In this document: positions 21,677-59,739 of the stretch, in pieces | Numbering within the stretch: position 1 is the stretch's first letter | Layout: every line of letters starts with the position of its first letter | Notes under the pieces: model-generated | What the model was told of the DNA's origin: nothing | Databases searched by the model: none | What the model saw: the letters and a program-made list of their open reading frames with translations, nothing else | Assembly (NCBI GenBank): GCA_002269645.1 | Contig: NIVC01001228.1 | Span: forward strand, 1 to 64,000 | DNA length: 64,000 bases | Direction: 5' to 3' | Source of the DNA: Macrostomum lignano | Taxonomy: Eukaryota | Made by a program: the position numbers and the translations under genes

Positions 21677-21678
21677 AC

Positions 21679-32054: not shown

Positions 32055-32888
32055 GAAAATCCTATTTCTAAGACAAAATATCTAATATCTATTCGACTTT
32101 ACATTAATTAAAGAGGCCTGAAGTAAGTGTGAACGTAAGCTTTGACTTCACTACCGTCAGGGAGGGCAAATCAGTTTAAAAAAGCTGGAAAAATTGGACG
32201 GTTTGTCCAGTCTGTATGTATTGCTTTTGAATGCAGGCATTATAACAGTGGCAAAATATTAATGCAGAACAATTACATAATTATTAATTAACCAAGACTC
32301 CTAACTCTTAGATACTATATTATCAATAGCAGTAAATGTTTTTGCACGACGTTATTAGCACTAACATTTCCTTTCGTTATTTTCAAAAACGAAAGCCAAG
32401 TCCCCTAAACAAATTCCAGTTGTAGATGCAGTTACTGCTGATAACATTACGTGAATTTGATCATACAACAATTGCTACACAAATTGTAGTTAAACATGGC
32501 TTTTTAATGGAATAGAAAGCCTTTTTTCATTTTTATAAAAATGGACCTCTAGATGACAAAAGTCCAAATTATAAATTTGGACCTCCGTTGGACCTTTTTG
32601 ATTCACAGTGCAGACTATATGGCGGAGGAACCAGCCAGGCGGCGCGCTTTCTCTCCTTCGTTTATTTCTCTCGCTTTTGTAGCATTACAAATAAAAATGG
32701 CGTACGTATTAAAACTAATTAAAGATACTATATTAGACTAAGGCTACTAATGATACTATTTCTTACTATTAACAACACAAAAAACATATTTTTATTTAGG
32801 CACGAAGATCTTTAATCGAATAGAAAAATAGTCGTAATTATAAGGCAACATGCACAAGAATAATAGGCTAAGAATAACGGCTCTTACA

Positions 32889-33674: not shown

Positions 33675-34579
33675 CGCATTTCATTTGTACTTAGCAGTCA
33701 GTACAACCATATGTGCGCTTGATGAGATTTTAAACAGAAGAACTGCGTGGAGACCAGGGCATCCCACTATCCCACTGTTCCATTATCAATCGGGGGAAGG
33801 AAAACTGAGGGTGCCATTTCCTCTATGACAAACAAGACACGCACCCCTTAGTGTGGGGAACACCCGCATGCGCCGTCTAGTTATATTACTTGATCTGTGG
33901 CATCGCCAGTGAGCGGGATGAGCTGTACACAGTCGCCACTCTCAAGCGCGCTCTCTCATTCTGGGAGGACAAACGCGCCTGGATCTCCGCCAACGAGAGT
34001 CTACCCTACGGCCACTACCGTCTGCAGTCCCGAAAGCGCCCCTGCCCGTCTGATTGATTTTAATTGGACAATTTTCACAACATTAAAATTTTGCAACACT
34101 TTTCCTCAATTTTTTGTAAATCTGTAAATAATGTAAATTTTAACGTTTTATGTGATTTAAACAGTGTATGCATGTTTAATACAGCCATAGTATATTTTGA
34201 ATAATATACATATGCTTTACTCTATGACATTCAATACGCTGCAGTAGAGAAAATGCTCTTTCACATTATTATTTTTGTCATAATGTCCAGGTTAAAAGTT
34301 AAAAGTTAGTCGAGTCCAGGTTAAAATCCCCATTGAAATACATGTTTTGTGAACAAGTATGTAAGTTTTCGTCCACAGTGATTTAAAGCACGCAATATGG
34401 CGTGAATTTTTCGACAACATGCGTCAATTTTCATGCACAAGTTCGAGTGAAAATCCCTATTGAAATACATGTATTTTGTTTTCAAGCCAGGTCTTTGGCA
34501 TAAGAAAATGATAGGTACTATAAATTTGGAAAAATGATAAAAAGGCGATTTCCAACCTGCCAAGTATTTATCTTGACTG

Positions 34580-35060
34580 CAGGAGGCCGGGCAGCTATGG
34601 AGACTATCAGGCGTTAAAACAAGAGTTGCACAAACAGCAAGGGCGCAAGTTTAGTGTAGGGCAGGTATGGATTTTTAATTCTACGATATACTTCTGGACC
34701 AAAGATTTTCTAAAAAATTCCATCCTAGATTTGCCTCAGATTTATCCACTAGCTAGCTATTTCCAGTTTTCATATTACTTACAATTAAAGGTAATGACTT
34801 GGCTCAAAGACCAAGATGTCTACACACTGCATAGAGATAAACGCAAAAACTTTCGTTTAGCACCAATTGTGGTGCGGGGCATGGATGACCCGTGGGAACT
34901 GGACCTGGTTGAAATGCTTCCATTCCGTTGAAATGCAATGGCGGCATGCGATACTTTCTATGCTGTATTGATATGCTCAGCAAAATGGCCTAGGCTCAGC
35001 CAGTGCGCCGCAAAACAGCCGGAGAGGTTGCGGCAGAATTCAATGCAATTCTGAAAAATC
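34580..35060 (+). pseudogene. Polinton-1 integrase N-terminal remnant containing a 126-nt GT-AG insertion
   Basis: GSYGDY.., [34665-34790], VMTWLKDQDVYTLH, PIVVRGMDDPWELDLVEM, CIDMLSK, KTAGEVAAEFNAIL; homologous to 19381-19845. Confidence 0.85.
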
Positions 35061-35367
35061 TTTTTTTCAAAGGCAGAGAGTGGCGCACAATGAGCATAAA
35101 TTGCACCTACATTGTGCTGTTCAACAACCCCAGAGACACCTTGGGCAGCCTTAAGTCAGCTGTAAATAGCATCAGTTTCGCTATCGCGTGCGCGTGAACT
35201 TATGTGTTTTATGTTCAGTGTACAATCGCCAGTGTACATTGCAAAATCAAATATGAAATATCTCGCTTGGCTTTAGCCACTTCGTGTTTTCTCGGACTAA
35301 CTCAAACCTGCCCTTTGCTTAGTTTACATTGGTGGCAGCGGTCTCTAAATCAAGCCGGCTTACCCAT

Positions 35368-36214
35368 GGCGCACGCAAATGCACTTTTGCCACCCAAGTT
35401 TTCGGGTGCTGACGACACCGACATCAATATGTGGCTGCAAATTTTTGAAGATTTTGCAGCAGATTCAGTGTGGAACGATGCTAAAATGGCTTCAAAAATC
35501 AAGCTTCTTCTGTGTGGCGAAGCTTTGGTGTTCGTCTGGGACCTGTCAGAGGACGAGAAGAAAAGCTTCAAGAGTATAAAAACCAAACTCGTCCAGTTCT
35601 ACAGCAGCAAGGAAAACTCCTACCGCGCCATGTCGGAGTTTGAGAGCCGAAAACGACGTCAGGGAGAATCATTGAGGGAGCTGTGCTTGGCTCTCAAGCT
35701 TCTGTATCGGAAGGCACGCCCTGAACACGCTCAAACGGTGAGAGACTGCGAAGTGCGACACCGAATGCTGGCACTGCTGCCTAGAGAGATTCGCGAAGCC
35801 TTACTGAAAGAGCCAACGAAGAGCCATTGCGACGAAGTCAGCCCTGAACAGTTGGCGGACCGAGCCACGATTCTGGAGAGCATAGGCAGCAAAGGAGCCT
35901 CTGCAAGCGTTGCAGTGACATCGGTTAGTAATCAAGTGTCTGATCGGCTGGAGCAGATGCAGGAGCAGCTGGTAGACCTGGCCGCGACAGTCGCCACGAT
36001 CAGCAGCCGGGGAAGTCAATGTGGAAGAGGAAGAGGAGCCGGACGCAAAGGCGGCAGCCGAGGAAGATGTTTCAATTGTGCTCAGCCCGGCCATTTTGCT
36101 GCTCAGTGCCCCAGCAGGAAGGCCGCACCAACCACGCCGTCCGTGTGCAGCCGCTGCTCAGGCAAAGGACACCGAGCCGAGGTCTGCCCGACACCAGCTT
36201 CGGGAAACTTCTGA
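35368..36214 (+). CDS. gag: Gypsy Gag with two CCHC zinc knuckles
   Basis: PPKFSG...WLQIFE; CFNCAQPGHFAAQC and CSRCSGKGHRAEVC; open frame from MAHANALL. Confidence 0.9.
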
Positions 36215-36220
36215 GGACTG

Positions 36221-38230
36221 GTGACCGCGGGCCATCACCAGCCCTGCCTAGCAAGGCCCAAACCGCTTCCATCTTCCTTCTTCCTCCCTGTCCAGCTGGG
36301 GTCAACCAGGATCCCCATCTTCCCTGACAGGAGCCCCACGCCAGCCTGCCGAGTGATGCCCATCGCGGTGATTGCCAGAGTTGCCAGCACCGTGACCGTC
36401 CCTGCCCGCAGCCGTGTCATAATCCCGGTCAAGGTGCCATCGTCCGTCGAGCAGGGTCTGTTCGAGCCCAGCTCTGATTTCGTCGACAAGACGGGCCTGC
36501 TGCCGAACAGGGCGCTAGTGGTGTCCAGCGCTGATGGCAACCTGCCGGTGGGCGTCTGCAACCTGAGCGCCGACCCGGTAGTGCTCTACCAAAACCAGAC
36601 AATCGGGAACTTCGACTCTGCCGAACCTCATGGATCTGGCGAAGAACCTGATGAAGAGGTTGGCTTCAAAATCAACCCTGAGCTAAGTATGTCGCAACGC
36701 AAGCTAATCGAAGTCCTTCTCAGCAAGCACTAGAAAGCATTCGCCAGTAACGAGTTCGATCTGGGAACAACACACCTGCTGCAGCACGAGATCAACCTGG
36801 AGCCCGGCAGTCGCCCTATCAAGCGCAGGCAGCGAACAATCCCGCTGAACTTCCGCCAGCAAGTGGATAACAAAATCAGTGAGATGCTGCGTCACGGAAT
36901 CATCGAGCCATCGTGCAGTCCATGGGCGAGCAACCTGCTCGTTGTTCGCAAGAAAAACAACGAGATCCGAATCTGCACCGACTGGAGAAGCCTCAACTCG
37001 TGCACCGTGAAGGACGCCTACCCGCTGCCTCCCCTGTCGGTTGCTCTAGACGTACTTACGGAATGCAGTTGGTTCAGCACACTCGATCTCCGCCAAGGGT
37101 TCCTGCAGGTCGAGCTACGTGAACAGGATCGAGAGAAGACCGCATTTTACTCAACGCAGGGCCTGATGCAGTACAGGAAGCTTGGATTCGGCCTCTGTAA
37201 CGCTCCATCAACCTTTCAGCGGCTGATGGATCTAACAATGGCTGGTCTGAACTGGACCGAAGTTCTCACGTACATGGACGATCTGATTTTGTTCAGTCCG
37301 ACGTTTGAAAAACACGCCCAAACCTTGGAACAGGTCCTCGAAAGACTGCAGTCAGCGGGCCTTAAGCTTAACAAGCGCAAGAGCTGCTTCTGCTTCCAAG
37401 AAGTAGAGTACCTGAGCCAAAAATCTCTGCCGAGGGTATTCAGCCAACTCAGGAGAAGATCAGCGCCATCCAATCCATCCCAACGCCTGATTGTGCCGAA
37501 GACGTTCGCCGGCTCGTCGGTATGCTGGGCTTCTATCGGCGATTCGTCCCTGATATGACGTGACTATAATATTGATATTATTTTAATTGCATATGCAGTT
37601 TGACGCGTTTTGTTTTACCTATGGACTAAATGAAGCTGCAAAACAGGCTTGGGTGAAAAGCCCGCTGTGAGAATGTGAAATAAAGAGAAATAAGAGCAAG
37701 ACTAAGAACCTTGGAGCCGCGGAAACGTCTGCTAGGATATCAGCACTAATAATTAATGCCTTAAGTATATTGAAGACTTTAAGTAACCTGAAAACATAAC
37801 AGTCCCAAACTTTGCCAGCATCGCTAATCCGCTTCATCAGGTGACTCAGAAGGGACGGCAGTTTCGGTGGACATCAGAGTGCGAAGTGGCGCTACAGAAG
37901 CTGAAGTCAGCGCTCTCGGCGCCTCCACTGCTGAAGCTGCCGGACTTCTCCAAAGAATTCCGTCTGTGCTGTGACAGTAGCGGCGTGGCCATCGCGGGTA
38001 TCCTCAGCCAGCTGCACGAAGGCGTTGAATGTCCCGTAGCATACGCGTCGCGAGTCCTGAACAAGTCAGAGCGGAATTACTCGACAACGCACCGAGAGCT
38101 TCTGGCAATGGTGTGGGCAATGAAGCACTTCCGAAACTACTTGGCGTCAGCTGGTGAAATTCTGGTCTTCAGCGACCACAAGCCGTTGCTAGGGGTTACT
38201 GATCACCTACCTGCAAGAGATCAACTTCAC
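36221..38230 (+). pseudogene. pol: Gypsy pol remnant (post-protease region, RT, RNase H); no protease active site or integrase seen
   Basis: IIEPSCSPWAS, LDLRQGFLQV, FGLCNAPSTFQR, YMDD, CDSSGVAIAGILSQ, YSTTHRELLA, SDHKPL. Confidence 0.92.
37551..37801. mobile_element. Solo LTR (251 bp) inserted in the gypsy RT/RNase H linker
   Basis: TGATATG...CATAACA termini; 5-bp TSD GTCCC (37546-50, 37802-06); removal restores RFVPNFASIA. Confidence 0.85.
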
Positions 38231-39929
38231 GCTGCTCTTCAGACCCGGTCACGAGAAGGTGGTGGCAGATGCACTAAGCCGAGCGGCGGCGACTCGGCTG
38301 CCACCTGTCTGGTCGGACGACGCTATCAGTACAGCGCATACGCTTGCGTTGCCCGCCACTGACCCGCATGCAGCAGAGGACGGCCGGCCGCCCAGTCCCG
38401 TTGATCCGCGGCAGACCTGGACGGATCTGCTGGACGAGCCGACGGCTGCTGGGCCTCGTCGCTCTGAGAGGACTCGGAGACCGCCTGATTTTTTGTTGCG
38501 CAGTTCCAATCAAACAAACATGCTGCCGCGTTCGAATTCTAAGTTAAATCGTCACTTTTTTTAAGCCATTGTTTTTTTAAATCCTCAATTTAGGGAGGGA
38601 GTGATGTAAATAGCATCAGTTTCGCTCTCGCGTGCGCGTGAACTTATGTGTTTTATGCTCAGTGTACAATCGCCAGTGTACATTGCAAAATCAAATATAA
38701 AATATCTCGCTTGGCTTTAGCCACTTCGTGTTTTCTCGGACTAGCTCAAACCTGCCTTTTGCTTAGTTTACACAGCAATGCTTTCCCAAACGGTGCACTC
38801 TGCTAGTAAAACTGATAGATCCATTGGTGCGAGATGGAGATCAGCGCTATCTGCTGCTTGATTTTCACCCGCTTCACCACATGAACTGCGCCTGAGAGCC
38901 AGTTTTCTCCCCGATGAGGCCCCACAGCGCATTTATCTATAAGAATGGCTCAGTCTCTGCACCGAGTTAAACATTAATAAACATATTTCACTAATACGAG
39001 CGTAACTGTCTTTTGTGAGGGAACTATATCCTTGCATCGCTGTATACTTACCTATGCAAATAAAAGCACCATTTGCTTTTTGGTTAAGTGTATTATCAAC
39101 TTACTAGCAGGAAAAGTTTGCTGTGAAGATAGCTTGAAGCGGAGACTCAGGCGATATCGAAATACTCTCCGGCTTGTTGCACAAAGCAAGTGTGAAAGAG
39201 GCTCGGCGCAATCTCTCACACCCGCATATCATTCGTTGTCTTCCTCTGGTTCTCACCTGTATAAAATAAAAAGAGGTACAAGAAAATGATACTGGTGGCC
39301 CGGTTGCAGTATGAGGCACTTGTGAATCAGAGGGGCATGGAGACAATCTGTGAACCCGAGCTAGAGGCGGAAAAACAGTTGCGCAAGATTAGGGACGATC
39401 GTTGTGTGCAGCAACTACAGGCAAGTGCGACCCAAGAACAGTCTCCAGTAATTCCCAGAGAACCGCAATGGAAGAAAGTGTTATGTCTGACGGATTCAGA
39501 AATGGCATCATCGCCTGCAGGCATTGATTCACTTCATAACTGTTGCATATTCTCTAATGACTTGTTATATTCTCAGACATGACTTGTTATGTCTGACGGA
39601 TTCAGAAATGGCATCATCGCCTGCAGGCATTGATTAGCTTCATAACTGTTGCATATTCTCTAACTATTGCGTATATGACGCACGTTATTTTTCATTTGTG
39701 TTATGCATTACATTGCTCATGTCTGTGTGCTTGACTTGAGTGCTCTTAATGAGCCGCGGCTAAAAGAGAAAGAAAGAACAAGTCGCGGCTGCAGGATAAA
39801 ATATAAAGTACGCCGGTAACTCGCTTCAATTAAACATCACGGACTTCGACTTTAATGTCGTTGATCTAGAAGAGTCTACCAAGACTGGAATTATATATAG
39901 TCTTAGAAAAAGCAGAAGACATAACAATA

Positions 39930-40200
39930 ACTGTAAAGTGCAAATCGATTAGCATATATAATACATATTAAGTTTCTGTCAATGGTAAACCGCTGTACAA
40001 CTCAAATATCGTGGACCTGCTGAATTTCATAGTTAAAGATACGTACTCTTGGTATCTTCAGCCACCGAATGAGATTAATGCGTTTGTTACGTGTCTTCAA
40101 GAAAACCACGTGCCTCTGTCTGCAGTTGGTCTGAACACTACAAAACTGCTTGTGATAAAAAGGCAATTAGATAAATATATTGCATGCACGATAAGCAATT
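39930..40200 (+). pseudogene. Fragment of a conserved Polinton hypothetical protein
   Basis: NGKPLYNSNIVDLL...P.....F...L....VPLSAVG resembles the recurrent Polinton G..I.GSNIVDL...NVP motif (from memory of the family). Confidence 0.5.
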
Positions 40201-41995
40201 ATTTAGGCCCTAGACAAAACTATTTTTGGAGCGTTCAGAGATTTTAAAGCTATTGGCCCTAATTGCCTATCGCCGGTCGGCGAGTCCTACCAATCTTTCT
40301 CCAATAGTCACAGTACGGTACAAGAAAAGAAGGAACACAGGTGAACACGAACCGAATAGATTTAGAGAGTGATAATCCTATATGAATAAAGCTGATAATG
40401 GCTAGACGATTTAATTTGATTATTCAAGCTACAGGATTCAAGCAATTCGCGGCGCAGATAATTAGACTGATGATAACGAATAATAACGATTAATAATAAT
40501 GATTATATTACGCACTGACAAGCGGATCTCAGCTTGAAGAAGAAGAAGGAGGCACCGAACACAGGACCACGGAGAAAGACTCCTAACCCCTGGCCTAAGC
40601 CAGAACCTACACTCAAACGAGAGCCCTGCCGAATCGACCGTTCAACGGAGTACCGACTAAATTCTATCGGCACTGCCCTTCAGTGTGACACTGAGGCCCT
40701 CGGGGTCGAGGCCGCGTACTTGATCAGATCCGACAGTCTCTATCTAAACCGCGCTTGATAGCGACGACGTCAGACAAGGATGCCGAATCGTTACGCTACA
40801 AGACTGAAGCGGTCGGGCGGGGAACAAAACTATGGACCGGGGTGACGAATTCAGAACGCCTCAAAGCGCGAATCAAAGGGAAACAGGCCACCGGCCGGGA
40901 AGCTGGACAAAACCAAGAACCGGGGAAAGAAGGGGGTGAGATCCGATTGCCAAACACACTTTCATTTATAGTCAGAGTCACAACTCCTCAAAACCCCCCT
41001 CAAGCCGGGTGGTGGTCGTCTGGCCGGCCGCTTGCTTAAGCCGAATTGCACTGTGCCCGCGGCGCCGGGTAGAATTGGAACTTGCCACGTGCCAGGGTCC
41101 AGGCCGGTTCTGATTGGCTGGCCGCGCAAAGCTGGGGTTCGCAGACAAAAACTCAACCCTCCGCTGAGTCACAAACGGCGTCTGACTTCTAGCCTGTTTA
41201 CGCAAAATTGATTCTAACTAACAAGGAAAAAGTACACCAAAAACGTATGACTAAACTAAAGCAAAATAATAATTCAATAACAATAATGCAAAACCTAACT
41301 AATAGAATACAAGGCTATCGCAAAAGATGCTCACACTACATGCTGGAAAAGCCTCGGGAAGAAAATTGTAGTCCGAAAAAGCCTTGGCTGCAAGACTATA
41401 AGAAGACGCAGTCTCAGGAAAGTGGATCAAGTGGCCAAGATGATTGTCATTGATTTTGAATGATTTTCGCACCTCTACAAAACAGAGGACTTTGGGGTCG
41501 TACTATAAAGCTGTCGTAGCGTAATTTCGATCGTACGTCGGAACTTTTACACTGCGAAGATAAGAGCTAAGAACGATCTTATCTTACGATGGCTTTATAG
41601 AACGGGCCCTTTGTGATTAAGGAAATTGCATGGGTTGACTTTGCATGTGTTCAAACGACGGTTCATTACTATTGCTACCGGCCGCCGCGCACCTTTGAGC
41701 TCTTTGATAGAGGACAACGACGAACGAACCTGCTACTGGCTTACCAATGAGCCTCCGGTCTAGACTGGGACTGAAGTGGGTTCCGAACCTACTCTTGTCT
41801 CTGGAGCGATATCTCTCACTTGCACAAGGCCTGATACTCAGTAAAGGGGATGTCAAGTGCCAGTTCCTATCGCGCCTGCTGTTCCAGCCTGTCCACGACC
41901 TAGCATAGATGGCCTTTCCGAGTGCCTCAAAGTACGTGCTACCCTGCGCCCTGGCCAAGGTGGCGCTGTACGCTGATTGGCTACAAAAAAAGGTC

Positions 41996-42002
41996 TATAA
42001 AA
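41996..42002 (+). promoter_or_regulatory. Canonical TATAAAA box with upstream reverse CCAAT box for the TBP-like gene
   Basis: CTGATTGGCT (~41973) then GGTCTATAAAAG, 47 nt before the ATG at 42049. Confidence 0.65.
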
Positions 42003-42048
42003 GTAGCGATCTGCAGCAGGCACTGACATTACTCTCGATTGTCTAAAG

Positions 42049-42618
42049 ATGGTCGCAACAACAGGAGCCGATCTGGCGACCCGGGTGGCTCTGCCACAAC
42101 TAGCGAATTTCCTGACTCTTTATCTGCCTCAGTATCACACAATCCGCCATCGCCTGGTTCATCCTCGAACACTGGCAGTGGTGATGAAGAGCGAGCAGCA
42201 TCAAGTAACCGCGCTGGTGTATCCGACTGGACAAGTGTCTGTCTGTGGAGCCAAAAGCATGGAGGAGGCTCTCGCAAAGACGGAGAAGATTGTGAGGCTG
42301 TGTGCGGATTTCTTGCGATTGACCAGTCTGCCCCAGATTCGCATCAAGACTATTACCTCTGTGACGGCCTTTTTCGCGGGTCGCCATCCACTCCGGTTGA
42401 GGGAAGTCAAGTCTAAGTGGGGTACCTACAAGCCGAAAATGTTAAATGGGCTTGTGCTCAAGTTAACTGTCTCTGTAAAGTTGATTTTTGTTTCATTCAT
42501 ATCGCTGTATATAGCTGGTGCTTGCAGCGTGGTTGAGGCTCAGACTGCAGCTGATACCCTCTTCCGCATTTTGTATGCAGACCAAGCATCCGAGCCTACT
42601 TTGCCGGACTCTGACTGA
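42049..42618 (+). CDS. TBP: Divergent TATA-box-binding protein (TBP)-like protein encoded within Polinton-1
   Basis: Two-repeat TBP core: [33 protein letters not shown] vs TBP [41 protein letters not shown] vs [21 protein letters not shown] vs YEPELFPGLIYRM; LIFVS..YIAGA vs LIFVSGKVVLTGA. 189 aa with no stops. Confidence 0.82.
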   Translation: [189 protein letters not shown]

Positions 42619-43033: not shown

Positions 43034-43453
43034 TCCGAGCTACCACGGGTTGGCTGGTCCTTCGAGTTCTTCCAATATTCATTGCCTGTGTTGCCACAGC
43101 TGTCGCCATTGCTCAGTTGGTAGCGACAGGGCGTGTCTCAAGTGCAGTACGGGCTCGAGCACTGTTGGAAGGCGCCAGAGTGAGATTGCACCATCTTTGA
43201 CCACCACTTGCCTGTTGCCACCCAGAAGCCATTGCGCATCGAGTTTCCTGTCAGCGAACTCCTCCAAGCGCTTGGTCAAGCTGGCCAGGTGTCGGAATTG
43301 ATGGATGGTGAGCTCCATGCCGGGCAGACCTGGCCGATGATCCTCGTCGTCAGACTTAAACCACTTTCTAATACTGATGGTTTGTGTGTCCGGCACCAGG
43401 TTGATGCGATAACCATGTAGTAGTTCTTTAAACGCTATCAGAAAAAAATTCAT
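43034..43453 (-). CDS. Tandem PC4-like protein of Polinton-1, probably with a premature TGA near its C-terminus (43079-43081)
   Basis: ISIRKWF...RPGLPGMELTIHQFRHL (PC4 repeat 1); LLGGNRQVVVKDGAISLWRLP...LPTEQWRQLW aligns to KLGFDKFVEVKGGIIWLKRLP...LTPPLWQKLW of 18274-19047. The frame continues *ILEELEGPANPW after the stop. Confidence 0.75.
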
Positions 43454-43484: not shown

Positions 43485-44042
43485 AGGTGCTTTGCTTATA
43501 AAGGGTACTGGACCCTTTCTCCTGCGGGGTGTGTTGACCAACCAAATTGTGCTCGGACCGACAGGACCTCTCGACCAATACAATACCTTCCCCACATTAT
43601 ACTCGGAAATTCCGAGGAAATCACTTTGAATGCTTTCTGGACCAATAGAATCTCCTCCCTCACAATACCCCTCTTCTCGGAAATTCCAAGCAATCGGACC
43701 CTTTACAGACACGAACCCGTTGACCGATAACATTAAAACTGTCTTCCGTGTCACCACACGCGGTAGAGGACACTTACCAATGGACACTTACCAGACACTC
43801 AGCTGCCCGACCCCTCATCTAAGCCTGCTCCCCACCTCTGGGTCACCCCTAGGCTGGCTCGACCCCTCATCCGACCTGCCCGACCCCACCTTTGGCCTGC
43901 TCGACCCCACCTCTGGCCTGCCCCACCTCCGGCCTGCCCCACCCCGCCTTCGGAGCCTCCTCATCACTGATTGGCTCCCCTCGCTGATTGGCCAGTCAGC
44001 CAATCAGCGACGTTCGCCAGACTGTACCATTTTCCTACTACT
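43485..44042 (-). repeat. Right terminal inverted repeat of Polinton-1
   Basis: Inverse of 2864-3422; contains the hairpin CGCTGATTGGC...GCCAATCAGCG (43982-44009) and a minus-strand TATAA at 43496-43500. Confidence 0.9.
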
Positions 44043-44048
44043 CGTACG

Positions 44049-44520: not shown

Positions 44521-45113
44521 AGCAGTTTCACCTTAATTTCTCTGGTTTTTTATGACGAAGTAACATAAGTATCCAGTTATTAGTAAAATACGACATAATT
44601 GATCTCTTAATCATCCTTTACGACGGAAAGGAATATGACGATTGGACCAGAAATCCATGAAACTGATAATATGGATATGCCAGTCAACAATTGGCAGTTT
44701 TGTTTAACTCAAATCATAACAATTTATTTCAGATGGTATATTGTATTATCAAGAACGTACAATGAATTATATTGAAGAAATACTCATGTTTAAAAAAGCA
44801 GTTAAAAACTATTAAGCAACAGATTTTAAAGCTTAATTTAGTTTTTGTTAACCTATTGCTACATAAATTTTTTTACAGATTTTTTCTTTCAATATAATAG
44901 AGTTTCTATCTCGCTAATGCATGCAAATATTTGGCAGCTTTTGAAAGCTAATTGATCAGCTCTTGTGTATGAACATTAAAAATTAAGGTATTAATAGAAC
45001 AAGTAAAATTCAGGAGGAAATTATGACTAATAGAAAGCAATAAAATTTTTTAACTAAAAATTAAATAGGTGCTTATAAAAAAATACAGTCAATAATATTG
45101 AAAATGATTTCTT

Positions 45114-47226
45114 TTATTCTACATCTGCATCATCAATATACGGAATTTCGTCAGTCTCTTGAATTGAATGAAAAGAGGAAGTGCCCCCGTTGTTCTCTGA
45201 CTGGGCAACATCATCACCGACTGTGCAGCAACTGCCTGATGATGAGTTTCTGAAATTAAAAGTTTCTGAGAATTTTCAGTCTTGTTCCTACAAGTCTGAG
45301 TATCGGGAAAGGGACAGAAAAGCATACCCTAGAGAAGGGTAAGGGGAAGGGACATTAGAGAGAGAAGAGTAGGGGCCGGAGGAAGGGATATTAGAGAGAG
45401 AAGAGTAGGGGCCGGAGGAAGGGACATTACAGAGAGAAGAGTAGGGGCCGGAGGAAGGGACATGTAGTCAGAAAGATAAGGATGCATGGGAAAGTATGAA
45501 GAATAATCAGAATGGAGCATCCCATAACCCATGCCTGCATTTAGAACAGACGGAAAAGTGAGTTAAAAGCATAAAAAGAACTTACATTATGTGAACGCAA
45601 AAGCAGAGAGTCAGCATCAGAAGGGCGAACGCAAGAAGCAGTATAGCTATCAGCATTATAGCCATGTAGAATTTTATATCATAAAATGATCCCGTAAAGT
45701 TAGGAGTTACAAAAGTTGTGGACAAATGTGATTCCAAAATCTTCTTCAGCTTGTTCGGGATTTGACATGATACTGATGAAAAGCTGCATTCCTGGTGGGA
45801 TGACTTCACTGAAATTGAGAGATTGAGATGGGTTGATGCAATTGACAGTGGAATGTAAATAGACGTGGAGGAGGAGATGTCAAGAAGAGGGAAGGCGAGT
45901 GGGGAAAAGGGCAAGAAGCAAAGATGCAGGATAGAGGGCAAAGGAAAAATATGCCTGGGATCTCGAACTCGTCCGCGAGACGTTTAAAAATTAACAACTC
46001 AACACTGCATCTGAATGGTAAATGACGCTCACCAACGATGGGGCAAGTATCGCTTGTGCTCATATTCGGGCAGTCCTCAGGACTGCAGGTTGACCCGTTT
46101 TGAAAATGCCTGCCGCGAATCTGACGATTGAATCAAGTAGGACTTGGTTAATTAGTTTCTTAAGTTAGCGTTTGTTTCCTTAATTGTTTACAGTATCTTA
46201 CTGTCTTGGTGTCTTAATGGATTTTCAAGTGTCTTAGTGAACGTCTTACAGGATTAGTATCCTAGAGAATTAATGTCTCACAGTTTAGTGTCGTACAAGA
46301 TAAGTGTCTTACGGGATTAGGCCTACAGGATTAGTGTCTGATGGTATTAGTCTTGTGGCTTTGCGTCTATCTTTGACGCCTCTACGTCTGAGAGCCGTAA
46401 TGTCCAAATATCTGATCAATTTGCCATTTAGTAATAAAACGATTGCGAATAATCAGTTTATTTCCAAATAATTACAGTGGCAAATTTGCTAATGGACTTA
46501 TCTATATTAAAAATTTAGTGAAATATAGACGGATCAACCACTCACAGTAGCTGATATTAAAGTGCATTTTTTCCAATTCGGCGGTAGAGTCTCAATGATG
46601 TAACAGTACTCGGTACCGACTATGCAGTTTAGCTTCTAAAAAACACGATGATAAGCGCTCTCGATTTTACAATCTTAACAAGTGTTCCAGGTTTGGGCGC
46701 CAAGGATTTTGGGCTGGGTTGCAGGAATTTGACTCACGCTGTTCTTCAGAATGTAGAAGCTGTTCTGAGGCCTGTGAGCAATGTAGTGTGGCGTTAGAAA
46801 CACGACGCCCTCAACGACGCCCAGCCGCTTGTAGTGGCTCCTACCGGTGAAGAAAAGCGCCACTTCTTGTTGATTTTCTCTAAACTGAAATCCGTAGATC
46901 CTCGTGTCGGTTGTGGACCTGTCAGAGACTTCTGGCAGCTGCCAGCCACACACTGAAATGATTGACAGCGCCAGACAGATTCTGACTAATTCTGACTCCA
47001 CGATACTACTGCGGACACTGATGGATACTCAAAAACACTAATGCAGACACTCATACGCGGACACTAAGACACTAATGCGGACACTTAAAGTACTAATACT
47101 CTAAAAAACTATCACACAAAGCCACTAAGGTACAGACGGTGAATAAAACGCACCAAGGTCCTCGAACATAGTCAGCATAGCAATGAGGCCCAGAAGCAGT
47201 CGATTGCTTGCTTGAAAAGTTCTCAT
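45114..47226 (-). pseudogene. Orphan type I membrane protein, paralogue A (6 exons; exon-5 acceptor not found, possibly a pseudogene)
   Basis: Exons 47154-47226, 46738-46952, 46546-46635, 46033-46120, 45586-~45850, 45114-45249. GT/AG boundaries and phases match paralogue B except that no AG is present before exon 5. Confidence 0.7.
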
Positions 47227-47989
47227 TCCTGTACTGTGTCTATGGTATTGAGCTGAAGCTTTTAAAACAGGTGGGTCTGTAGCTTGCAGTTGTACGAAAC
47301 CATATTTATACACAAGTTCTCGCTCTCTAGCGAGGTTCTGCTTTTCAGAACTACGGACGCGAAAAAGCGTGCCTTTCTGTCAACCAGTTAGCCGGTGTTA
47401 TAGAGAACCACATCAACGTCGTAAAAATATACGGATTGAATATGCGGCTTTAAAATGCATGCTAGATACCAATTTTACACATTTTCTCAACTTGTTTCCC
47501 TCTGATATCACACTTTTAGCTTTTGCCTTCGGATTTCTGTTATTAACTATAGATATAATAACATTAGAAGCCTATCTTCTACTTCTAGCCACGTTCTATG
47601 CATCTGAAGTCAAAACTCGTTTTGGAAAGGCAGGATTTGTTGCTTAATTAGTTGCTACCCAAAAAGAAACATTTTTCTTTCAATCATTCCTCTCTCTCTC
47701 TCTCTTCGTGGCTAGCTCTCTGTCTCTTATCCCTCAAGAAAGTAATTTTTGCTTGGCCGTTTCCTTGTTTTAAGAGAAGCCAGTTTTAAAATCCCAAAAT
47801 ATAGAATATATATCTACTCTCCCTCGTACAAGAGAAAATTCTCTAGCGATTCAATTTTACGCTCGTCTATAATGTTTTTCTCATTTTAAAACAATGCTTT
47901 TCCATTAAAATCATGGTTCACCACTCGGATTAGCCTGTGGGGTGGCTGACTTCAAAGCGCAGGGAAAGGTGGGTTACCGCCCCCCTCCA

Positions 47990-48230
47990 CCTACGTCCCT
48001 TTTCCCGCCCTCTGAAGGTATCTGCTTGAACTTAAACGCAGGGAAATCAGGGCGGTAACCATGGCCCTCTCAGGCCATATGTGTTTTGCCAGGAATCGTT
48101 ACCTCTAGGGAAAATTCGGCAGTCAGGAATGCCCATTATGTTTCTTGGGTGTTGAGAATGCGGAGCACATCATCTGTGAATGCCCTGCCTCTCCTCAGGA
48201 CAGGCTCGCCTAACTTAACCCAAACCCGGA
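47990..48230 (+). mobile_element. 5'-truncated fragment of a LINE related to 11738-17626
   Basis: RREIRAVTMALSGHMCFARNRYL*...CPLC...ENAEHIICECP vs RRDIRAAMTLSGHGCFSRHQYL...CSFC...ETAEHFVSICP. Confidence 0.75.
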
Positions 48231-48247
48231 CCTCTCCGACGTTTTCA

Positions 48248-48500
48248 GGGGTCGTAGCCTAGTGGTTAGAGCTTCGGACTCACGACTTGAAGGTCGACTT
48301 GGAACAATTTGTGTCCTTGAGCAAGACACCTAACTCTACATTGCTTCAGTTCATCCAGCTATAAAATGGGTGCCAGCATTAGCTCAGGTAATTGAGAGTG
48401 GCGACCCCCAGTTCTCGGACTGAGCAGCCGTACGCAGCCTTCAGATTTGCCATGCAATAGCTGCGGCTGAGCTGTCGGTTGCATATCTGCCCGTTGAGGC
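48248..48500 (+). mobile_element. Degenerate tRNA-derived SINE of a second family (CORE/V-like central domain)
   Basis: GGGGTCGTAGCCTAGTGGTTAGAGC head; TGTGTCCTTGAGCAAGACACCTAAC central motif. Confidence 0.6.
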
Positions 48501-49158
48501 AGGTGTAATTAATTAATTATTAATTGGGCTCGAGAATTTCTGCCAGCTCGTCCGCTACATAAGGGCTACCGGAGTGGGACCGCGCTGCGGACACCTGCAC
48601 CACCGGATCTCTCTGCGCGACACCGCAGCACCAGCTCCCCGTGGTCACCAGAGGTTAGCGGAATTTGAGTCAACGCCCCTGTATCCGGATGCCCGGAGCG
48701 CCCCTACAGCTGAGTCAAGTAAGTCCATTAAAATCATTGTGATAGTTTCTACAGAACTTTTGAAAGCCTGCATATAATTTCTTTTTTCTTACGCACTTTT
48801 GAACTAATTCACGGATGCATGTAACGTCAAAATCACCAATCTGACAATCATGTTCAGCTTTATAGCAGAATTGGATGTTTTCTTCCATGTTTAGTTCATT
48901 AAAAATTTAGTTCTATTTCGCTTGTCCAGTTTAAGACGTTACTCGTGCCTTTAAAAAGTATAAGTAAATGCATTGTTAGCTTTAAGGTAACTACGAGCGT
49001 ATGAGCATTATCAATTGATGATGGAAATTATGGAAAGTAGAAATTCAAACTGTATTTAATTTAAAATTGAATGAATAAGCATAACAGTATTAGTATAAAG
49101 AGTTATGGATTATATATTATTACAGCATCAGTGGTCTCAGAAAATAGACTTTTTCTTC

Positions 49159-52100
49159 TCAATCTTGCACAGTCGGCTCATCTTCGATATACGGAATTTC
49201 ATCAGTCTGTTGTATAACCTGTGCAGACGAAGCGCTCGCGTTGTTCTCTGACTCGGCACTAGTTTCACGGACTGTGCAGCAACTGTCTGATGAGGAGTTT
49301 CTGAAATTGAAAGTTTCTGAGCATTCGCTGTCTTGTTCTTACCAGTTTGAGCATCGGAGAGAGGGTGGTGGAAAGGTAAAGAAATAGGAAGAAGAAGAAA
49401 CATTAGGGAGAAAAGGGTAGGGGGGGGGGACATTAGAGAGTGAAGAGTAGGGGGAAGGACATAGGGAGAGAAGAGAAGAGTAGGGGGGAGGACATTAGGG
49501 AGTGAAGGATAGGGGGAAGGACATTAGGGAGTGAAGGATGGGGGAAGGACATTAGACAGTGAAGGATAGGGGGAAGGACATTAGGGAGTGAAGGATAGGG
49601 GGAAGGACATTAGGGAGTGAAGGATAGGGGGAAAGACATTAGGGAGAGAAGGGTAGGGGGAGGACATTAGAGAGTGAAGAGTAGGGGGAAGGACATAGGG
49701 AGAGAAGAGAAGAGTAGGGGGGAGGACATTAGGGAGTGAAGGATAGGGGGAAGGACATTAGGGAGTGAAGGATGGGGGAAGGACATTAGACAGTGAAGGA
49801 TAGGGGGAAGGACATTAGGGAGTGAAGGATAGGGGGAAAGACATTAGAGAGTGAAGGATAGGGGGAAAGACATTAGGGAGAGAAGGGTAGGGGGAAGGAC
49901 ATTAGACAGTGAAGATTAGGGGGAAGGACATTAGGGAGAGAAGGGTAGGGGGAGGAAATTAGAGAGTGAAGAGTAGGGGGAAGGACATTAGAGAGTGAAG
50001 GGTAGGGGGAAGGACATTAGGGAGAGAAGAGAAGAGTAGGGGGAGGACATTAGGGAGAGAAGGATAGGGGGAAGGACATTAGGGAGTGAAGGATGGGGGA
50101 AGGACATTAGACAGTGAAGGATAGGGGGAAGGACATTAGGGAGTGAAGGATAGGGGGAAAGACATTAGAGAGTGAAGGATAGGGGGAAAGACATTAGGGA
50201 GAGAAGGGTAGGGGGAAGGACATTAGACAGTGAAGATTAGGGGGAAGGACATTAGGGAGAGAAGGGTAGGGGGAGGAAATTAGAGAGTGAAGAGTAGGGG
50301 GAAGGACATTAGAGAGTGAAGGGTAGGGGGAAGGACATTAGGGAGAGAAGAGAAGAGTAGGGGGAGGACATTAGGGAGAGAAGGATAGGGGGAAGGACAT
50401 TAGGGAGTGAAGGATAGGGGGAAGGACATTAGAGAGTGAAGGGTAGGGGGAAGGACATTAGGGAGAGAAGAGAAGAGTAGGGGGAGGACATTAGGGAGAG
50501 AAGGATAGGGGGAAGGACATTAGGGAGTGAAGGATAGGGGGAAGGACATTAGACAGTAAAGGATAGGAGGAAGGACATTAGGGAGAGAAGGGTAGGGGGA
50601 TGGACATTAGAGAGTGAAGGATAGGGGGAAAGACATTAGGGAGAGAAGGGTAGTGGGAAGGACATTAGACAGTGAAGATTAGGGGGAAGGACATTAGGGA
50701 GAGAAGGGTAGGGGGAGGAAATTAGAGAGTGAAGAGTAGGGGGAAAGACATTAGAGAGTGAAGGGTAGGGGGAAGGACATTAGAGATTGAAGAGTAGGGG
50801 GAAGGGACATTAGGGAGTGAAGGATAGGGGAAAGGACATTAGAGAGTGAAGGATAGGGGGAAAGACATTAGGGAGAGAAGGGTAGGGGGAAGGGACATTA
50901 GAGAGTGAAGAGTAGGGGGAAAGACATTAGAGAGTGAAGGGTAGGGGGAAGGACATTAGAGAGTGAAGAGTAGAGGGAAGGACATTAGAGAGTGAAGAGT
51001 AGGGGGAAGGACATTAGGGAGAGAAGGGTAGGGGGAAGGGACATTAGGGAGTGAAGGATAGGGGGAAGGACATTAGAGAGTGAAGGATAGGGGGAAAGAC
51101 ATTAGGGAGAGAAGGGTAGGGGGAAGGGACATTAGGGAGTGAAGGATAGGGGGAAGGACATTAGAGAGTGAAGGATAGGGGGAAAGACATTAGGGAGAGA
51201 AGGGTAGGGGGAAGGACATTAGACAGTGAAGATTAGGGGGGGAGGACATTAGGGAGAGAAGGGTAGGGGAAAGGACATTAGGGAGAGAAGAGAAGAGTAG
51301 GGGGGAGGACATTAGGGAGAGGGGATAGTCTAGCTAATTAAGCCTTACTTTATGAGGCTTGTTTGACCGCTTTCATTTTCGTCTTTGCAGCAACTTGAAG
51401 CCCCCTCCTTCACACGGGTGGTTCTCGGCGATTTTCTAAAATTGAATTCTCGCGCATATTTGCTTGGGTGGCTTGCTAGACGTTAAAATTGAAGAACCAC
51501 TTATACTTGGAGACTCATTGGAATCTGCTAGTCAGAGATAATGATGGGGCCAAGGTACGGACAGTGTAGGTTTTAAAGAATGTATTATGTTGGTTTTTAC
51601 ATTGATGGATGGAGTTGAAATGCATGTGTTCTTTGTGTTACACGCCGCTTGCGGCCCGCTATCAGATTTTCCCAGTGGGTGGGTGCGAAGTAAAAGGGTT
51701 AGATAGGAGTAAGAGGGAGATAGAAGTGAGAAGGAGATATGGGTGAAAGAAAGATACGGATGAGATTTGAAAGGATAAAGAATCTAAGAATTGAGCCTCC
51801 CGCAATCCATGCTTGCTTTTAGAACAGATTTCGAGGAAAAAGCATTAAAAGCATGAAAAGAGACTTACTTTACTTGGACGTACAAGCAGATAATCAGCAT
51901 CAGAATGGCGAAAGCAGAAAGCAATGTAGCTGTCAGAATCGAAATAAACGACGAGGTTCGCAAGTTTCCAGTTAAGTTCGGAGTTACAAAAGTTTTTGGC
52001 AAATGAAATTCCAAAATCTGCTTCAGCCGGTTTGGCATTTGGCAGGATATTGACGGAAATCTGCATTCTTGGTCGGCTGACGTCGCTGAAATGTAGAGAT

Positions 52101-55100
52101 TGAGAGGATGGGTTGATGCAGTTAGCTGACAATCTAATTTAAATACACATGACGGAAGGAGAGACTATGGACCGAATTGATGCTTGTTAGACCAAATTAA
52201 ATGCTGCTGTGCCATCCTTGCTACCATATACAAAAGCTTCATTACTTTGACAAACATATATTGGATTAAATTCAATGCGTGGCTGCAAAAAGCTATAGTC
52301 AAAAAGTCAAAAAGGCTCACCAATGATGGGGCAATTTTCGCTTGTGCTCATATTCGGACAGTCTTCAGGACTGCAAGTTGACCCGTTTCGGAAATGCCTG
52401 CCGCGAATCTGTCAATGATTTTGAAATTAATACTTCGTTTTTTGGTTGTTTGTGATACACGCTAGTAAATACAACTGCCAGCTGCTGCCGTTCAGGTGAC
52501 AAATTCTTGAGATCCAGCCTGCCGAGTCAAGTCGACAAACACAAAAAACAAACGAGCCGACAAACGCTGCAGAGGTTCGCTGTTTTCTTGGCCTGATCAC
52601 GTTCGTCAGTTGTTTCATTCCGGGCCTCGCAGACATGACAAAGCCACTGCAGGACCTGACGAAAAGATGCTCAAGCTGGCAGTGTATCGATCGCAGGAAG
52701 CTAAGGCCTTTCAAACTATCCGGGACTGGCGTGCATGCAACACCACTCTGGTATTCTCAAAGGCGAGTAGAGCTTTTTCTGCAGTCAAGTCCAGACACTC
52801 ACAGACAGAGCGAGAGGCACTAGCAATCAAGTACGGATGTCTGAAGTTTCAGCACTACCTCAACGGTGCAAAAAGTTAACAATCGGGACCGATCATAAGC
52901 CGCTGACCTTCATGTTTAAGCCTGGCTCGCGTCTACCCCCTCGCATCGAACGCATGGCACTCAGTATCCGGGATTTGCAGCTCGGCGAGATGCTGGACAC
53001 CAACTACATCGGCAGCATCTACACCAGACAAGCAGCGACACCAAGAGTACTGTTTCTGCTGCAAGTCAAGGAAGCGACGGCGTGAGATGCCATCCTTTCA
53101 TTGGCAATGTCCTCATTGCGCACCGGTAGTTGGTATCTGCGAACGGAAACATTCGGCGAATGCATGCGGTTCGATAGGAGCTGACGGAGGCATCAGGAGT
53201 TTTTCTATGAGACCAGCAACTTGTGATCCATGAAGCTCTGCAGTCGACTGTTCTTCAGTTAGCGTACCAAAGGTCATCAAGGCGAGACAATAACTTTGCT
53301 GCAATTCAAATTCAACTCAAAATTCTGGTGGCCAGGAATTTCGGCTGAGACTAAAAGAATCGTGCCGAAGTGCCTAGAGTGCGCCGCCGCAAATCATCAT
53401 CTGAAAGTCCCAGCAGCACCCTACAACCAACCGACCTGCCTGAGTCACTGTGGTCCATCATAGGAATCGACTTTCTTGACCCCATCAACAGATGACGACT
53501 TTTGATGATTGTCGACCAATCATTTGCGCTATCCGATCGTCATTGCAATAAAGTCAACCACCGAAAAGTGACGGACAGCGGCCCACCACTCTCTTCGGAA
53601 GTGTTCGCCAGTTTTCACCCAGAATCACGGGACTAGCCACCGTCAAATCACGCCATACCATCCTGGGGCAAACGACATCACGGAGCGTATCAACAGGTCC
53701 TTGAACAAGTTGCTACGAGTCGCTAAAAGTTGCCACCAGCAGCTCCGCGGCTCCAAGATTGCTCAAATCAATTTTAACATAATTTTAACCGACCGCAGGC
53801 AGATTTTTACAGGGATAGAGTGACTAATTTTTTTTAATTGAGATCACTCATTAATACCGGTTGAAAGAAAAACATTATGGTAAGATAACATGCAACAAGA
53901 TTCAACTACTCACAGTAGCTGATACTAAAGTGCATTTTTTCCAGTTCCGTGGCAAAGTCTCAATGATGTAGCAGTACTCAGTGCCGCCAATGCAGTTTAG
54001 CTTCTAAAAGAGACACAAAGACGAGCGCTCTGCATTTTACAGTCTTAAAAAGTTTTCCAGGTTCGTGCGACAAGAGTTTTAGGTTGGGTTTGCGCGGATT
54101 CTAGGTTGGGGTTGCACGGATTTTAGGTGGGGTTGCACGGATTCTAGGTTGGGGTTGCACGGATTTTAGGTTGGGGTTGCACGGATTTTAGGTTGGAGTC
54201 GCATGGATTTTAGGTGGGGTTGCACGGATTCTAGGTTGGGGTTGCACGGATTCTAGGTTGGGGTTGCACGGATTTTAGGTTGGGGTTGCACGGATTCTAG
54301 GTTGGGGTTGCACGGATTTTAGGTGGGGTTGCACGGATTCTAGGTTGGGGTTGCACGGATTCTAGGTTGGGGTTGCATGGATTTTAGGTTGGGGTTGCAC
54401 GGATTCTTGGTTGGGGTTGCACGGATTTTAGGTTGGGGTTGAACGGATTTTAGGTTGGAGTCGCATGGATTTTAGGTGGGGTTGCACGGATTCTAGGTTG
54501 GGGTTGCACGGATTCTAGGTTGGGGTTGCACGGATTTTAGGTTGGGGTTGCACGGATTCTAGGTTGGGGTTGCACGGATTTTAGGTGGGGTTGCACGGAT
54601 TCTAGGTTGGGGTTGCATGGATTTTAGGTTGGGGTTGCACGGATTTTAGGTGGGGTTGCACGGATTTTAGGTGGGGTTGCACGGATTCTAGGTTGGGGTT
54701 GCACAGATTTTAGGTTGGGGTTGCACGGATTTTAGGTTGGGGTTGCACGGATTTTAGGTGGGGTTGCACGGATTCTAGGTTGGGGTTGCACGGATTCTAG
54801 GTTGGGGTTGCACGGATTTTAGGTGGGGTTGCACGGATTTTAGGTTGGAGTCGCATGGATTTTAGGTAGGGTTGCACGGATTTTAGGTGGGGTTGCACGG
54901 ATTTTAGGTTGGGGTTGCACGGATTCTAGGTTGGAGTTGCACGGATTTTAGGTTAGGGTTGCACGGATTCTAGGTTGGGGTTGCACAGATTTTAGGTTGG
55001 GGTTGCATGGATTTTAGGTGGGGTTGCACGGATTTTAGGTGGGGTTGCACGGATTCTAGGTTGGGGTTGCACAGATTTTAGGTTGGGGTTGCACGGATTT

Positions 55101-56292
55101 TAGGTTGGGGTTGCACGGATTTTAGGTTGGGGTTGCACGGATTTTAGGTGGGGTTGCACGGATTCTAGGTTGGGGTTGCACGGATTTTAGGTTGGGGTTG
55201 CACGGATTCTAAGTTGGGGTTGCACGGATTCTAGGTTGGGGTTGCACGGATTCTAGGTTGAGGTTGCACAGATTTTAGGTTGGAGTTAAACGGATTTTAG
55301 GTTGGAGTTAAACGGATTTTAGGTTGGAGTTAAACGGATTTTAGGTTGGAGTTAAACGGATTTTAGGTTTGAGTTAAACGGATTTTAGGTTGGAGTTAAA
55401 CGGATTTTAGGTTGGAGTCGCATGGATTTTAGGTTGGGGTTAAAGAGACTAGGGCTCCGAACTACTCTACGAGTATTAGGAATTTGACTCACGCTGTTCT
55501 TCAGCATGTAGAAGCTGTTCTGAGGCCTGTGAGCAATGTAGTGTGGCGTTAGAAACACGACGCCCTCAACGACGCCCAGCCGCTTGTAGTGGCTCCTGCC
55601 GGTGAAGAAAAGCGCCACTTCTTGTTGATTTTCTCTAAACTGAAATCCGTAGATCCTCGTGTCGGTTGTGGACCTGTCAGAGACTTTTGGCGACTGCCAG
55701 CCACACACTGAAATGATTGACAGTGAGGACACTAATACACTAATGAGGACACTAATGAGGACACATACGCTAATGAGGACACTAATACGCTAATGGGGAC
55801 ATTATTGCACTAATTCGGACACTAAGACACCAATGCGGACACTAAGACACTAATGCGGACACTCAGGCACTAATGCGAACAAAAATTCACTAATGCACTA
55901 ATTCGTACAATAATGCAGAAACTAAGACACTAATGCTCTAAATCGGATGCTAGTGCACTAATTTGGACACTAATGCACTAATGCTGGCGTAAAAAAAACT
56001 GAAAGAGTGATACGGACTCTAATTCGGACGCTATTTCGGACACAAATGCACTATTGGAGACACTAAGACACTAACACGGATACTCAAACAATAATGCAGA
56101 TACTAAAACGAGCACTAATGCGCAGACGCTAAAACACTAATGCGGACACTTAAAAATACTAATCCTCTAAGACACTATTACACAAAGCCACTAAGGTACA
56201 GACGGTGAATAAAACGCACCAAGGTCCTCGAACATAGTCAGCATAGCAATGAGGCCCAGAAGCAGTCGATTGCTTGCTTGAAAAGTTCTCAT
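49159..56292 (-). CDS. Orphan type I membrane protein, paralogue B (6 exons, 290 aa)
   Basis: Exons 56220-56292, 55493-55707, 53914-54003, 52321-52408, 51869-52133, 49159-49300 total 873 nt, all GT-AG and in phase with no stops. Signal-peptide-like MRTFQASNRLLLGLIAMLTMFEDLVCG; Cys-containing ectodomain; TM FISILTATLLSAFAILMLIICLYV; tail ending EIPYIEDEPTVQD*. Confidence 0.85.
49398..51325 (+). repeat. Purine-rich ~29-bp minisatellite (~65 units) in intron 5 of paralogue B
   Basis: Unit GGACATTAGGGAGTGAAGGATAGGGGGAA with variants and higher-order blocks. Confidence 0.97.
52440..53750 (+). mobile_element. Degenerate Ty3/gypsy pol remnant in intron 3 of paralogue B
   Basis: EVRCFLGLITF, HSQTEREALAIKYGCLKFQHYL, TDHKPL, PPRIER, HQG...WWPG...C.EC, GIDF, TPYHP..N...ER.NRSL. 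Confidence 0.85.
54075..55440 (+). repeat. 21-22-bp minisatellite (~60 units) in intron 2 of paralogue B
   Basis: Unit GGATT(T/C)TAGGTTGGGGTTGCAC. Confidence 0.97.
55710..56170 (+). repeat. Degenerate CACTAAT-based repeats in intron 1 of paralogue B (shorter equivalent at 46960-47110)
   Basis: Recurrent GGACACTAATGC / ACTAAGACACTAAT. Confidence 0.75.
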
Positions 56293-59619: not shown

Positions 59620-59739
59620 CTGCAGGACAGGCAAGGAAGTTGGTTTGGAAGCAATTTTATCCTTATTTTATGCGATATGCGTCAATGTGTCATATTCTGA
59701 GATTGTATTTCCTCATATCATCCCAAGTTTCTCAAATTC

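Follow-up and report, generated by a model that had tools for sequence, protein, structure and literature searches.

A TATA-binding protein gene with a fixed place in two Polinton families of Macrostomum lignano, and a candidate box upstream of their structural and packaging genes

Viral TATA-binding proteins and Polintons

Viral TATA-binding proteins (TBPs) are established in giant viruses, which supply matches in BFVD, and as mimics in beta- and gammaherpesviruses (available text of PMC6541308). In the latter, exemplified by KSHV ORF24, EBV BcRF1 and HCMV UL87, a nuclear DNA virus supplies a TBP-like protein, as do the Polintons described here, and KSHV structural genes carry a non-canonical box at the TATA position, which reads TATTWAA in KSHV and CT(A)TAAGAA in the Polintons. 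KSHV ORF24 has several domains, contacts Pol II directly and belongs to a six-protein complex (same text of PMC6541308), whereas the Polinton TBP is a core of 187-199 aa with a cellular-type TFIIB stirrup. No herpesvirus-type vPIC partners were detected in the Polintons, and the UL87-like entry in BFVD was matched at just E 6e-5. With a core-only length and a different box, the Polinton protein does not display the herpesvirus vTBP hallmarks (Pol II-binding domain, vPIC partners, TATT box); by analogy, it most likely works like a herpesvirus-type late TBP mimic without belonging to that family.

The TBPs of Nucleocytoviricota (Heterosigma akashiwo virus 01, ASFV B263R-like), the top BFVD matches, have the TBP fold in common with the Polinton proteins, and in some of these viruses TBP is accompanied by TFIIB-like genes, a pairing also seen in metagenome Polintons L073, L076, L080 and L082. 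Most TBP-carrying Nucleocytoviricota encode their own RNA polymerase, unlike the Polintons, where none was seen in the stretches read. Identity in structural alignments is at most 18% to Nucleocytoviricota TBPs, compared with 19-24% to cellular TBP. Cellular TBP and TRF2/TLF show the same two-repeat saddle and YEPE-type stirrup; in TRF2, which acts at promoters that lack a TATA box, Phe residues are likewise altered. In contrast to both, the Polinton TBPs form a separate clade, have a shorter repeat-2 loop and changes at the F99, F116, N159 and V161 equivalents, and are virus-encoded.

The element studied here is of the same type as the adintoviruses, Polintons and MELD viruses of PMC8502044. 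In that paper (Starrett et al. 2021), the legend of Fig. 5 marks one gene as TBP-like; its carrier is a MELD virus or related element whose PolB is adintovirus-like. In the available parts of the paper the TBP family, selection, a promoter box and host range are not discussed, and section 3.4 concerns mainly non-animal datasets. Neither TBP nor TATA was found in the available text of 10.64898/2026.10.13.758929, 10.1101/2023.08.22.554363, PMC11131425, PMC11296320, PMC11502894 and 10.1101/2022.05.25.493380. Within the full text available, the Starrett et al. legend (PMC8502044; preprint 10.1101/697771) is the sole mention of a Polinton TBP; figures, supplements and Repbase may hold more. A sequence-only reading of the present locus knew of no description of TBP in Polintons, a statement that the legend qualifies.

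The window element and its TBP gene

The window, i.e. the whole stretch of DNA analysed, comprises 64,000 nucleotides of M. lignano contig NIVC01001228.1. Most of it is occupied by an outer element (2864-44042) with AGTAGT/ACTACT ends, a 6-bp target site duplication (TSD) on both sides and terminal inverted repeats (TIRs) of ~530 bp and 70% identity. The left TSD and TIR lie at 2858-3393 on the forward strand (TSD 2858-2863), and the right TIR and TSD at 43543-44048 on the reverse strand (TSD 44043-44048). The element thus has the AGT-type TIR ends and 6-bp TSD of a Polinton, together with pPolB (PF03175) and a chromodomain integrase, the latter seen as rve plus a weak chromodomain in the sister copy L052 and as a fragment in the window. 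It is internally deleted, the capsid and protease genes being gone. What it keeps is a broken pPolB (3500-6900, forward; PF03175 at 5629-5973), an integrase fragment (34318-35160, forward) joined to the ATPase end, the ATPase end itself with PX-like and PW-like remains (38773-40150, forward), both identified by blastn to L052, the remains of a DEDD/Maelstrom-like nuclease ORF (41333-42416, forward), the TBP gene, and a PC4-like gene (43079-43453, reverse; PF02229, E 1.4e-5) that is shortened in the window copy and convergent with TBP. In the sister copies, the ATPase and protease give weak Pfam matches, and MCP and mCP are named by position and likeness. Short-read contigs differ from the assembled L052 by several single-base indels, and some breaks in the assembly may therefore be sequencing errors.

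A sister copy with the same TSD measures just 9.8 kb, and hence ~31 kb of the window's element consists of nested insertions. One is an internally deleted family-B Polinton (17640-25492, forward) with its own TIRs and 6-bp TSD, which carries PC4-like, INT, mCP, MCP and protease genes and is 98% identical to the TBP-bearing L053; this nested Polinton, and not the outer element, is the source of most of the integrase, capsid and protease sequence in the window. Further insertions at 10500-17230, 27332-32081 and 35161-38772 swell the 9.8-kb element to 41 kb. Among the nested sequences are two retroelements, one of the non-LTR type that carries RNase H and one with LTRs of 168 bp, as well as a piggyBac-type fragment (DDE_Tnp_1_7) and an ORF that contains CIDE-N and has unnamed neighbours. 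The flank at 45100-64000 is made up of long tandem-repeat arrays with strong GC skew. Reads of four sequencing runs, guessed to derive from RNA, fell on genes, on intergenic DNA and on the TIR without distinction.

The TBP-like gene (42049-42618, forward), a decayed copy of what we call family A, reads without interruption across 189 codons (sister copies, 199 aa). It matches Pfam TBP (PF00352) in two stretches at E 5.4e-14 and, among PDB sequences, yeast TBP at E 7e-8, along with solved TBPs of archaea, plants and human. AlphaFold modelling of a sister copy gave one good model among five (pLDDT 76), with which Foldseek retrieved TBPs at E ~2e-13 (TM 0.70 to 1mp9). The two repeats and saddle fold of PF00352 are thus present, the former by Pfam and the latter in the sister-copy model, and the window ORF is a genuine two-repeat TBP within a TIR- and TSD-bounded Polinton. 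The sequence-only reading, which had noted an open 189-aa ORF with both repeats and a canonical TATAAAA upstream, was right in these respects, and the fold check that it proposed supports a TBP. The TATAAAAG word lies at 41996-42003, 46 nt separating TATAAAA from the ATG in the window copy, and an inverted CCAAT lies at 41976-41980; on the forward strand 5' of the TBP gene, the two (41976-42003) resemble a host-type, presumably early promoter. An upstream TATA occurs in 18 of the 19 loci that have a full 5' end. From the end of the TBP ORF to the aligned inner TIR edge (43543) the distance is ~925 nt, with the PC4-like gene in between.

A fixed gene of two Polinton families

A genome search for TBP, with 150 of 185 candidates scored and ten rows dropped (nine second fragments and one 33-aa match), returned at least 37 family-A loci, 24 of them near full length and stop-free, at least 100 matches to a distant family B, and three host TBPs. 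Ninety-one of 100 family-B matches lie within 2.5 kb of a pPolB match, all of them convergent with it, and 114 of 140 pPolB rows have a TBP-like match within 12 kb. A pPolB or TIR match was found within 12 kb of 17 of the 37 family-A loci; the pPolB search scored 138 of 916 candidates, so that a missing pPolB neighbour is not an absence. Among 20 family-A loci, a PC4-like gene is present in all and a DEDD-like gene in 19, and all 15 family-B loci inspected have both the DEDD-like gene and pPolB. The place of TBP is fixed, between the DEDD-like gene and PC4 in family A or pPolB in family B, and the gene order in L052 is INT-mCP-MCP-protease-ATPase-PX-PW-DEDD-TBP. The genome-wide comparison of copies that had been proposed therefore places TBP in Polintons, with most family-B genes facing pPolB. 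Host TBP and a TRF-like gene (L021-L032) are both intronless, each on three contigs; as host genes are triplicated in the assembly, the copy counts overstate insertions, up to about threefold.

Families A and B are ~35% identical and form a single clade (support 97-99) in trees built without labelled giant-virus TBP sequences. Grouping them with host TBP was rejected by AU tests at p 0.0017 and with host TRF at p 0.006, on long branches. A tentative clade of Polinton TBPs of all lineages has a support of 75, again with long branches. These results bear on the proposal that the gene arose as a retrocopy of host TBP, or was inserted as a passenger, and plays no part in the life of the element. 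The intronless state of host TBP itself and the neutral evolution of the window copy, described below, are compatible with such an origin. On the other hand, Polinton and host TBPs are 25-28% identical in protein and share a DNA match of just 31 nt, no poly-A was found at the Polinton TBP loci, the AU tests reject a host grouping, the same position recurs in more than 100 loci, and the genes are under purifying selection. None of the marks of a host retrocopy (closeness to the host gene, poly-A, sporadic position) was found, and a retrocopy or separate insertion, refuted at the family level, is scarcely credible. TBP is thus a fixed gene of two Polinton families in this genome, a long-standing accessory gene of adintovirus-type Polintons that encodes a minimal, core-only TBP. 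Its earlier description as a captured factor holds in a deep sense at most, since a recent host origin is not seen.

The window copy itself is in decay. Nonsynonymous and synonymous changes number 5 and 1 against one of its two sisters and 17.5 and 3.5 against the other, ratios as under neutrality, and its first strand, part of stirrup 2, the acidic stirrup residues and one Phe are gone. It is a neutral fossil that is probably no longer functional. The window copy, L002 and L003 are three copies of one insertion and have in common the loss of the first strand, a shorter second stirrup and a short shifted stretch. The indels common to these three copies, two multiple-of-three deletions and a short shift that is compensated, all keep the frame; past selection to keep it open may account for this, as may chance. 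The pPolB of the outer element has a longest frame of 130 aa in 3.4 kb, and two stops and one frame change over ~790 aligned nt, in agreement with the earlier estimate of roughly one disruption per 250 bp. At this rate a 567-nt ORF would stay open by chance with p ~0.10, and the copy evolves neutrally with respect to its sisters; the open frame was accordingly rejected as evidence of retention, and the suggestion that the window copy had been retained does not hold, given its lost TBP features and neutral changes.

The family as a whole behaves differently from the window copy in the comparison of dN/dS among copies that had been suggested. For the N-half, which overlaps another ORF, the deeper pairs between B lineages gave dN/dS of 0.083/0.67 and 0.062/0.55, i.e. 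~0.11-0.12. For the C-half, dN between subfamilies was 0.14-0.46, with dS above 1 or saturated. The 199-aa A copies gave ~0.2 to ~1 among themselves, with few changes. The ratios between B lineages, ~0.1, indicate that the TBP gene family is under purifying selection.

The ORF that overlaps the N-half is the tail of the DEDD-like gene, which lies over TBP repeat 1 in the +2 frame and is open over 106-110 codons in all nine full-length B genes tested and over 128 in A (L004, L010, L036-L059; in the window, 42027-42416 is still open). Synonymous shuffling gave p 0.001-0.015 for each case, the tests not being independent. The tail may be derived, since Atlas look-alikes of the DEDD-like protein are just 155-181 aa long. 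The protein has no match among PDB sequences and, with a model of pLDDT 45, shows weak matches to DEDD nucleases (best E 0.01). Between family-B subfamilies (L036, L037, L053-L059), DNA identity falls from ~95-100% to 45-75% near TBP nt 330, a point that coincides with the repeat junction and the stop of the overlapping ORF. Repeat 1 segregates with the packaging module and repeat 2 with pPolB, the modules being swapped between subfamilies at the junction.

DNA-binding face and candidate promoter box

Residues are given in yeast TBP numbering, with a first-Phe register that depends on the alignment. In 13 A/B-type rows besides the window copy, N69, V71, T112, L114, E186, E188, F190 and F207 are kept, and the changes F116Y, T124C, Q158K and N159T are held in common. 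The F99 position is Leu in family A and Pro, with Trp beside it, in family B. The canonical set of four intercalating Phe residues and a symmetric Asn pair is therefore not found: the four Phe positions of the sister copies read L/P, Y, F and F, the first Asn is kept, and the second is Thr. The L, Y, L, F pattern that the sequence-only reading noted in the window copy partly reflects decay, whereas the altered DNA face that it suggested is a property of the family. Both Glu residues of the acidic TFIIB-binding stirrup are kept in 13/13 of these rows and lost in the window copy. Family A lacks the basic helix H2, and the pI of Polinton TBPs is 9.7-10.9. In TBP-TATA structures, the upstream half of the box is contacted by repeat 2, which also binds TFIIB, and the downstream half by repeat 1. 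The Polinton proteins keep the repeat-2 Phe pair and the TFIIB stirrup and are altered in the repeat-1 Phe and the central DNA-contact residues; recognition of the downstream half would thus be the most changed part.

Such a protein might be a decoy that binds DNA weakly, sequesters host TFIIB, Mot1, NC2 or TAF1 and, with the linked DEDD-like nuclease, damps host transcription as a form of shut-off. The invariant acidic stirrup beside altered DNA contacts, the missing H2 in family A, and the linkage of a nuclease-like ORF in both families, also near TBP in L069 and L070, would suit this role. Nevertheless, the N69, V71, T112, L114, F190 and F207 equivalents are kept and position 116 is Tyr, as for a DNA binder, the pI stays at 9.7-10.9, and a candidate target box exists. 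We regard the decoy role as improbable.

The candidate box is CT(A)TAAGAA. In family A, CTATAAGAA is located 36 nt before the PX-like gene (38937-38945, forward, in the window) and 54 nt before the DEDD-like gene (41396-41404, forward), and CTTAAGAA precedes mCP, while canonical TATA words precede TBP, PC4 and pPolB. In family B, CTTAAG occurs five times in L053 and three times in the nested window copy, on the gene strand and 12-104 nt before an ATG, and six of these eight read CTTAAGAA, which in the nested Polinton lies at 20446, 21575 and 23070. The box hypothesis was recorded before loci L065 and L066 were read, and as the motif was chosen by eye, without ranking all k-mers, these held-out loci are the sole correction for that choice. 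In L065 all four CTTAAG words read CTTAAGAA, lie on the gene strand and precede INT, mCP, ATPase and PX-like by 41-57 nt, a count of four against 0.27 expected that was reached in 0/200 shuffles. In L066, a close kin of L053, five of five CTTAAG fit, four of them 35-47 nt before the same four genes. The INT box is intergenic; several other boxes lie within the Leu-Arg-Lys codons or the stop codon of the upstream gene. Family B also has a box ~70-80 nt before TBP itself, which is kept at synonymous positions across lineages, whereas a CTTAAG close by lacks such conservation. Several structural and packaging genes are therefore preceded by a CT(A)TAAGAA box, mostly at 35-57 nt, a TATA-like distance.

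We consider it somewhat better than an even chance that an altered-specificity viral TBP drives the late genes through this box, in the manner of the herpesvirus mimics. Canonical TATA promoters would first be used by host Pol II, to transcribe pPolB and PC4 and, in family A, also TBP. Thereafter the viral TBP would bind the CT(A)TAAGAA box, which host TBP would read poorly, recruit host TFIIB and Pol II to the box promoters and, with the PC4-like protein, switch on the integrase, capsid and packaging genes in an early-to-late switch. Action on the element's own promoters, as the sequence-only reading envisaged, is probable. Several observations run against an altered-specificity TBP. The box is missing before four of the eight L065 genes (core, MCP, protease and PW-like), its presence before the family-B TBP fits poorly with a clean early gene, several boxes fall inside codons of an upstream gene, selection of the motif was by eye, and L066 is kin of L053. 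Loss of the N159 equivalent could also mean weak or absent DNA binding, and a single query or weak profile found no TFIIB-like gene in M. lignano Polintons.

The TAAG present in both boxes is the baculovirus late motif. The box might then be a TAAG-type start element read by a helper-virus polymerase or a host factor, with the viral TBP merely supplementing host TBP at ordinary TATA promoters, e.g. on unchromatinised replicating genomes. Both boxes contain A/T-TAAG, a spacing of 35-57 nt also fits a 5' UTR, and Spodoptera adintovirus particles were obtained from baculovirus-infected insect cells (available text of PMC8502044). Further, in a family without a TBP match, 9.9 kb read (~1 kb masked) had no such box, a point in favour of the viral TBP as its reader, but TATAAGC twice and TTTAAG once before genes, so that TAAG words, which also weigh against altered specificity, occur where no TBP was matched. 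This family without a TBP match, seen in L064, is a third, distant Polinton family, in which TATAAGCAAG is repeated 30-46 nt before two ORFs. A TAAG start element is nonetheless unlikely: the box differs between A and B and seemingly once more in further Polintons that carry a TBP, the DNA-contacting face of TBP has changed in a conserved manner and is not canonical, and LEF-8 was not matched in the genome, in a search run without a positive control.

The TIRs hold a TTTATAAA word, and it is conceivable that TBP bends DNA there for protein-primed replication or integration and not for transcription. Repeat 2 co-segregates with pPolB between subfamilies, and KSHV ORF24 also affects replication (available text of PMC6541308). 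This role seems highly improbable, since the kept TFIIB stirrup and the TFIIB-like genes that adjoin TBP in other Polintons point to transcription.

These other Polintons came from wider searches. A profile search of 1.84 billion proteins gave seven matches at E 1e-30 or better, all A/B-like, and revealed further short TBPs, a class in which the repeat-2 loop is shortened; a broad TBP profile drifted to cellular TBPs and was set aside. A metagenome scan with six of these sequences yielded 16 loci, with Pfam TBP in eight of eight tested and Polinton hallmarks in six (L070-L073, L076, L080); five more are Polinton-like by eye, two are too short to tell and three are unrelated. In L071, TBP faces pPolB and a PC4-like gene is present, as in the window element, and the metagenome Polinton L070 has two TBP-like ORFs in tandem (2065-3582). 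A TFIIB-like ORF directly follows TBP in L073, L075, L076, L078, L079, L080 and L082, probably one related group; the four tested show a Zn ribbon and/or TFIIB repeat at Pfam E 1.5e-4 to 6e-3, below the cut-off. Where seen, the TBP and TFIIB-like pair is head-to-head with MCP, and a TATTTA word was noted by eye before some genes. Other TBP-bearing Polintons likewise have, by eye, differing words upstream of their genes. PC4-like genes (window 18268-19047 and 43079-43453; L071:7964-8497) occur in both families and in an unrelated Polinton; PC4 is rarely mentioned in the 'polinton' papers searched. Of four queries run against viral contigs, three found no relative and the fourth retrieved one archaeal virus; an INPHARED search found one halovirus TBP.

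A broader proposal, which we advance tentatively and at less than even confidence, is that many animal-type Polintons anciently inherited a virus-specific minimal initiation kit (TBP, in some cases TFIIB-like, and PC4), with a DNA face that co-evolves with lineage-specific non-TATA late boxes and repeats that are shuffled as modules. If so, Polintons would have a regulated early/late programme of their own, with a possible link to giant-virus TBP and TFIIB. Several eukaryotic DNA virus groups have been proposed to descend from Polintons, and TBP and TFIIB-like genes in Polintons bear on the source of the giant-virus factors. The protein, if it has the specificity proposed, would be a naturally occurring TBP of altered specificity, and a simpler one than the herpesvirus mimics. 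The finding bears on the timing of capsid production in Polintons. If they do encode a TBP matched to its box, they would run a genuine viral gene cascade that needs neither a helper nor a polymerase of their own, and a single small protein and a site of 8-9 bp would suffice to test this.
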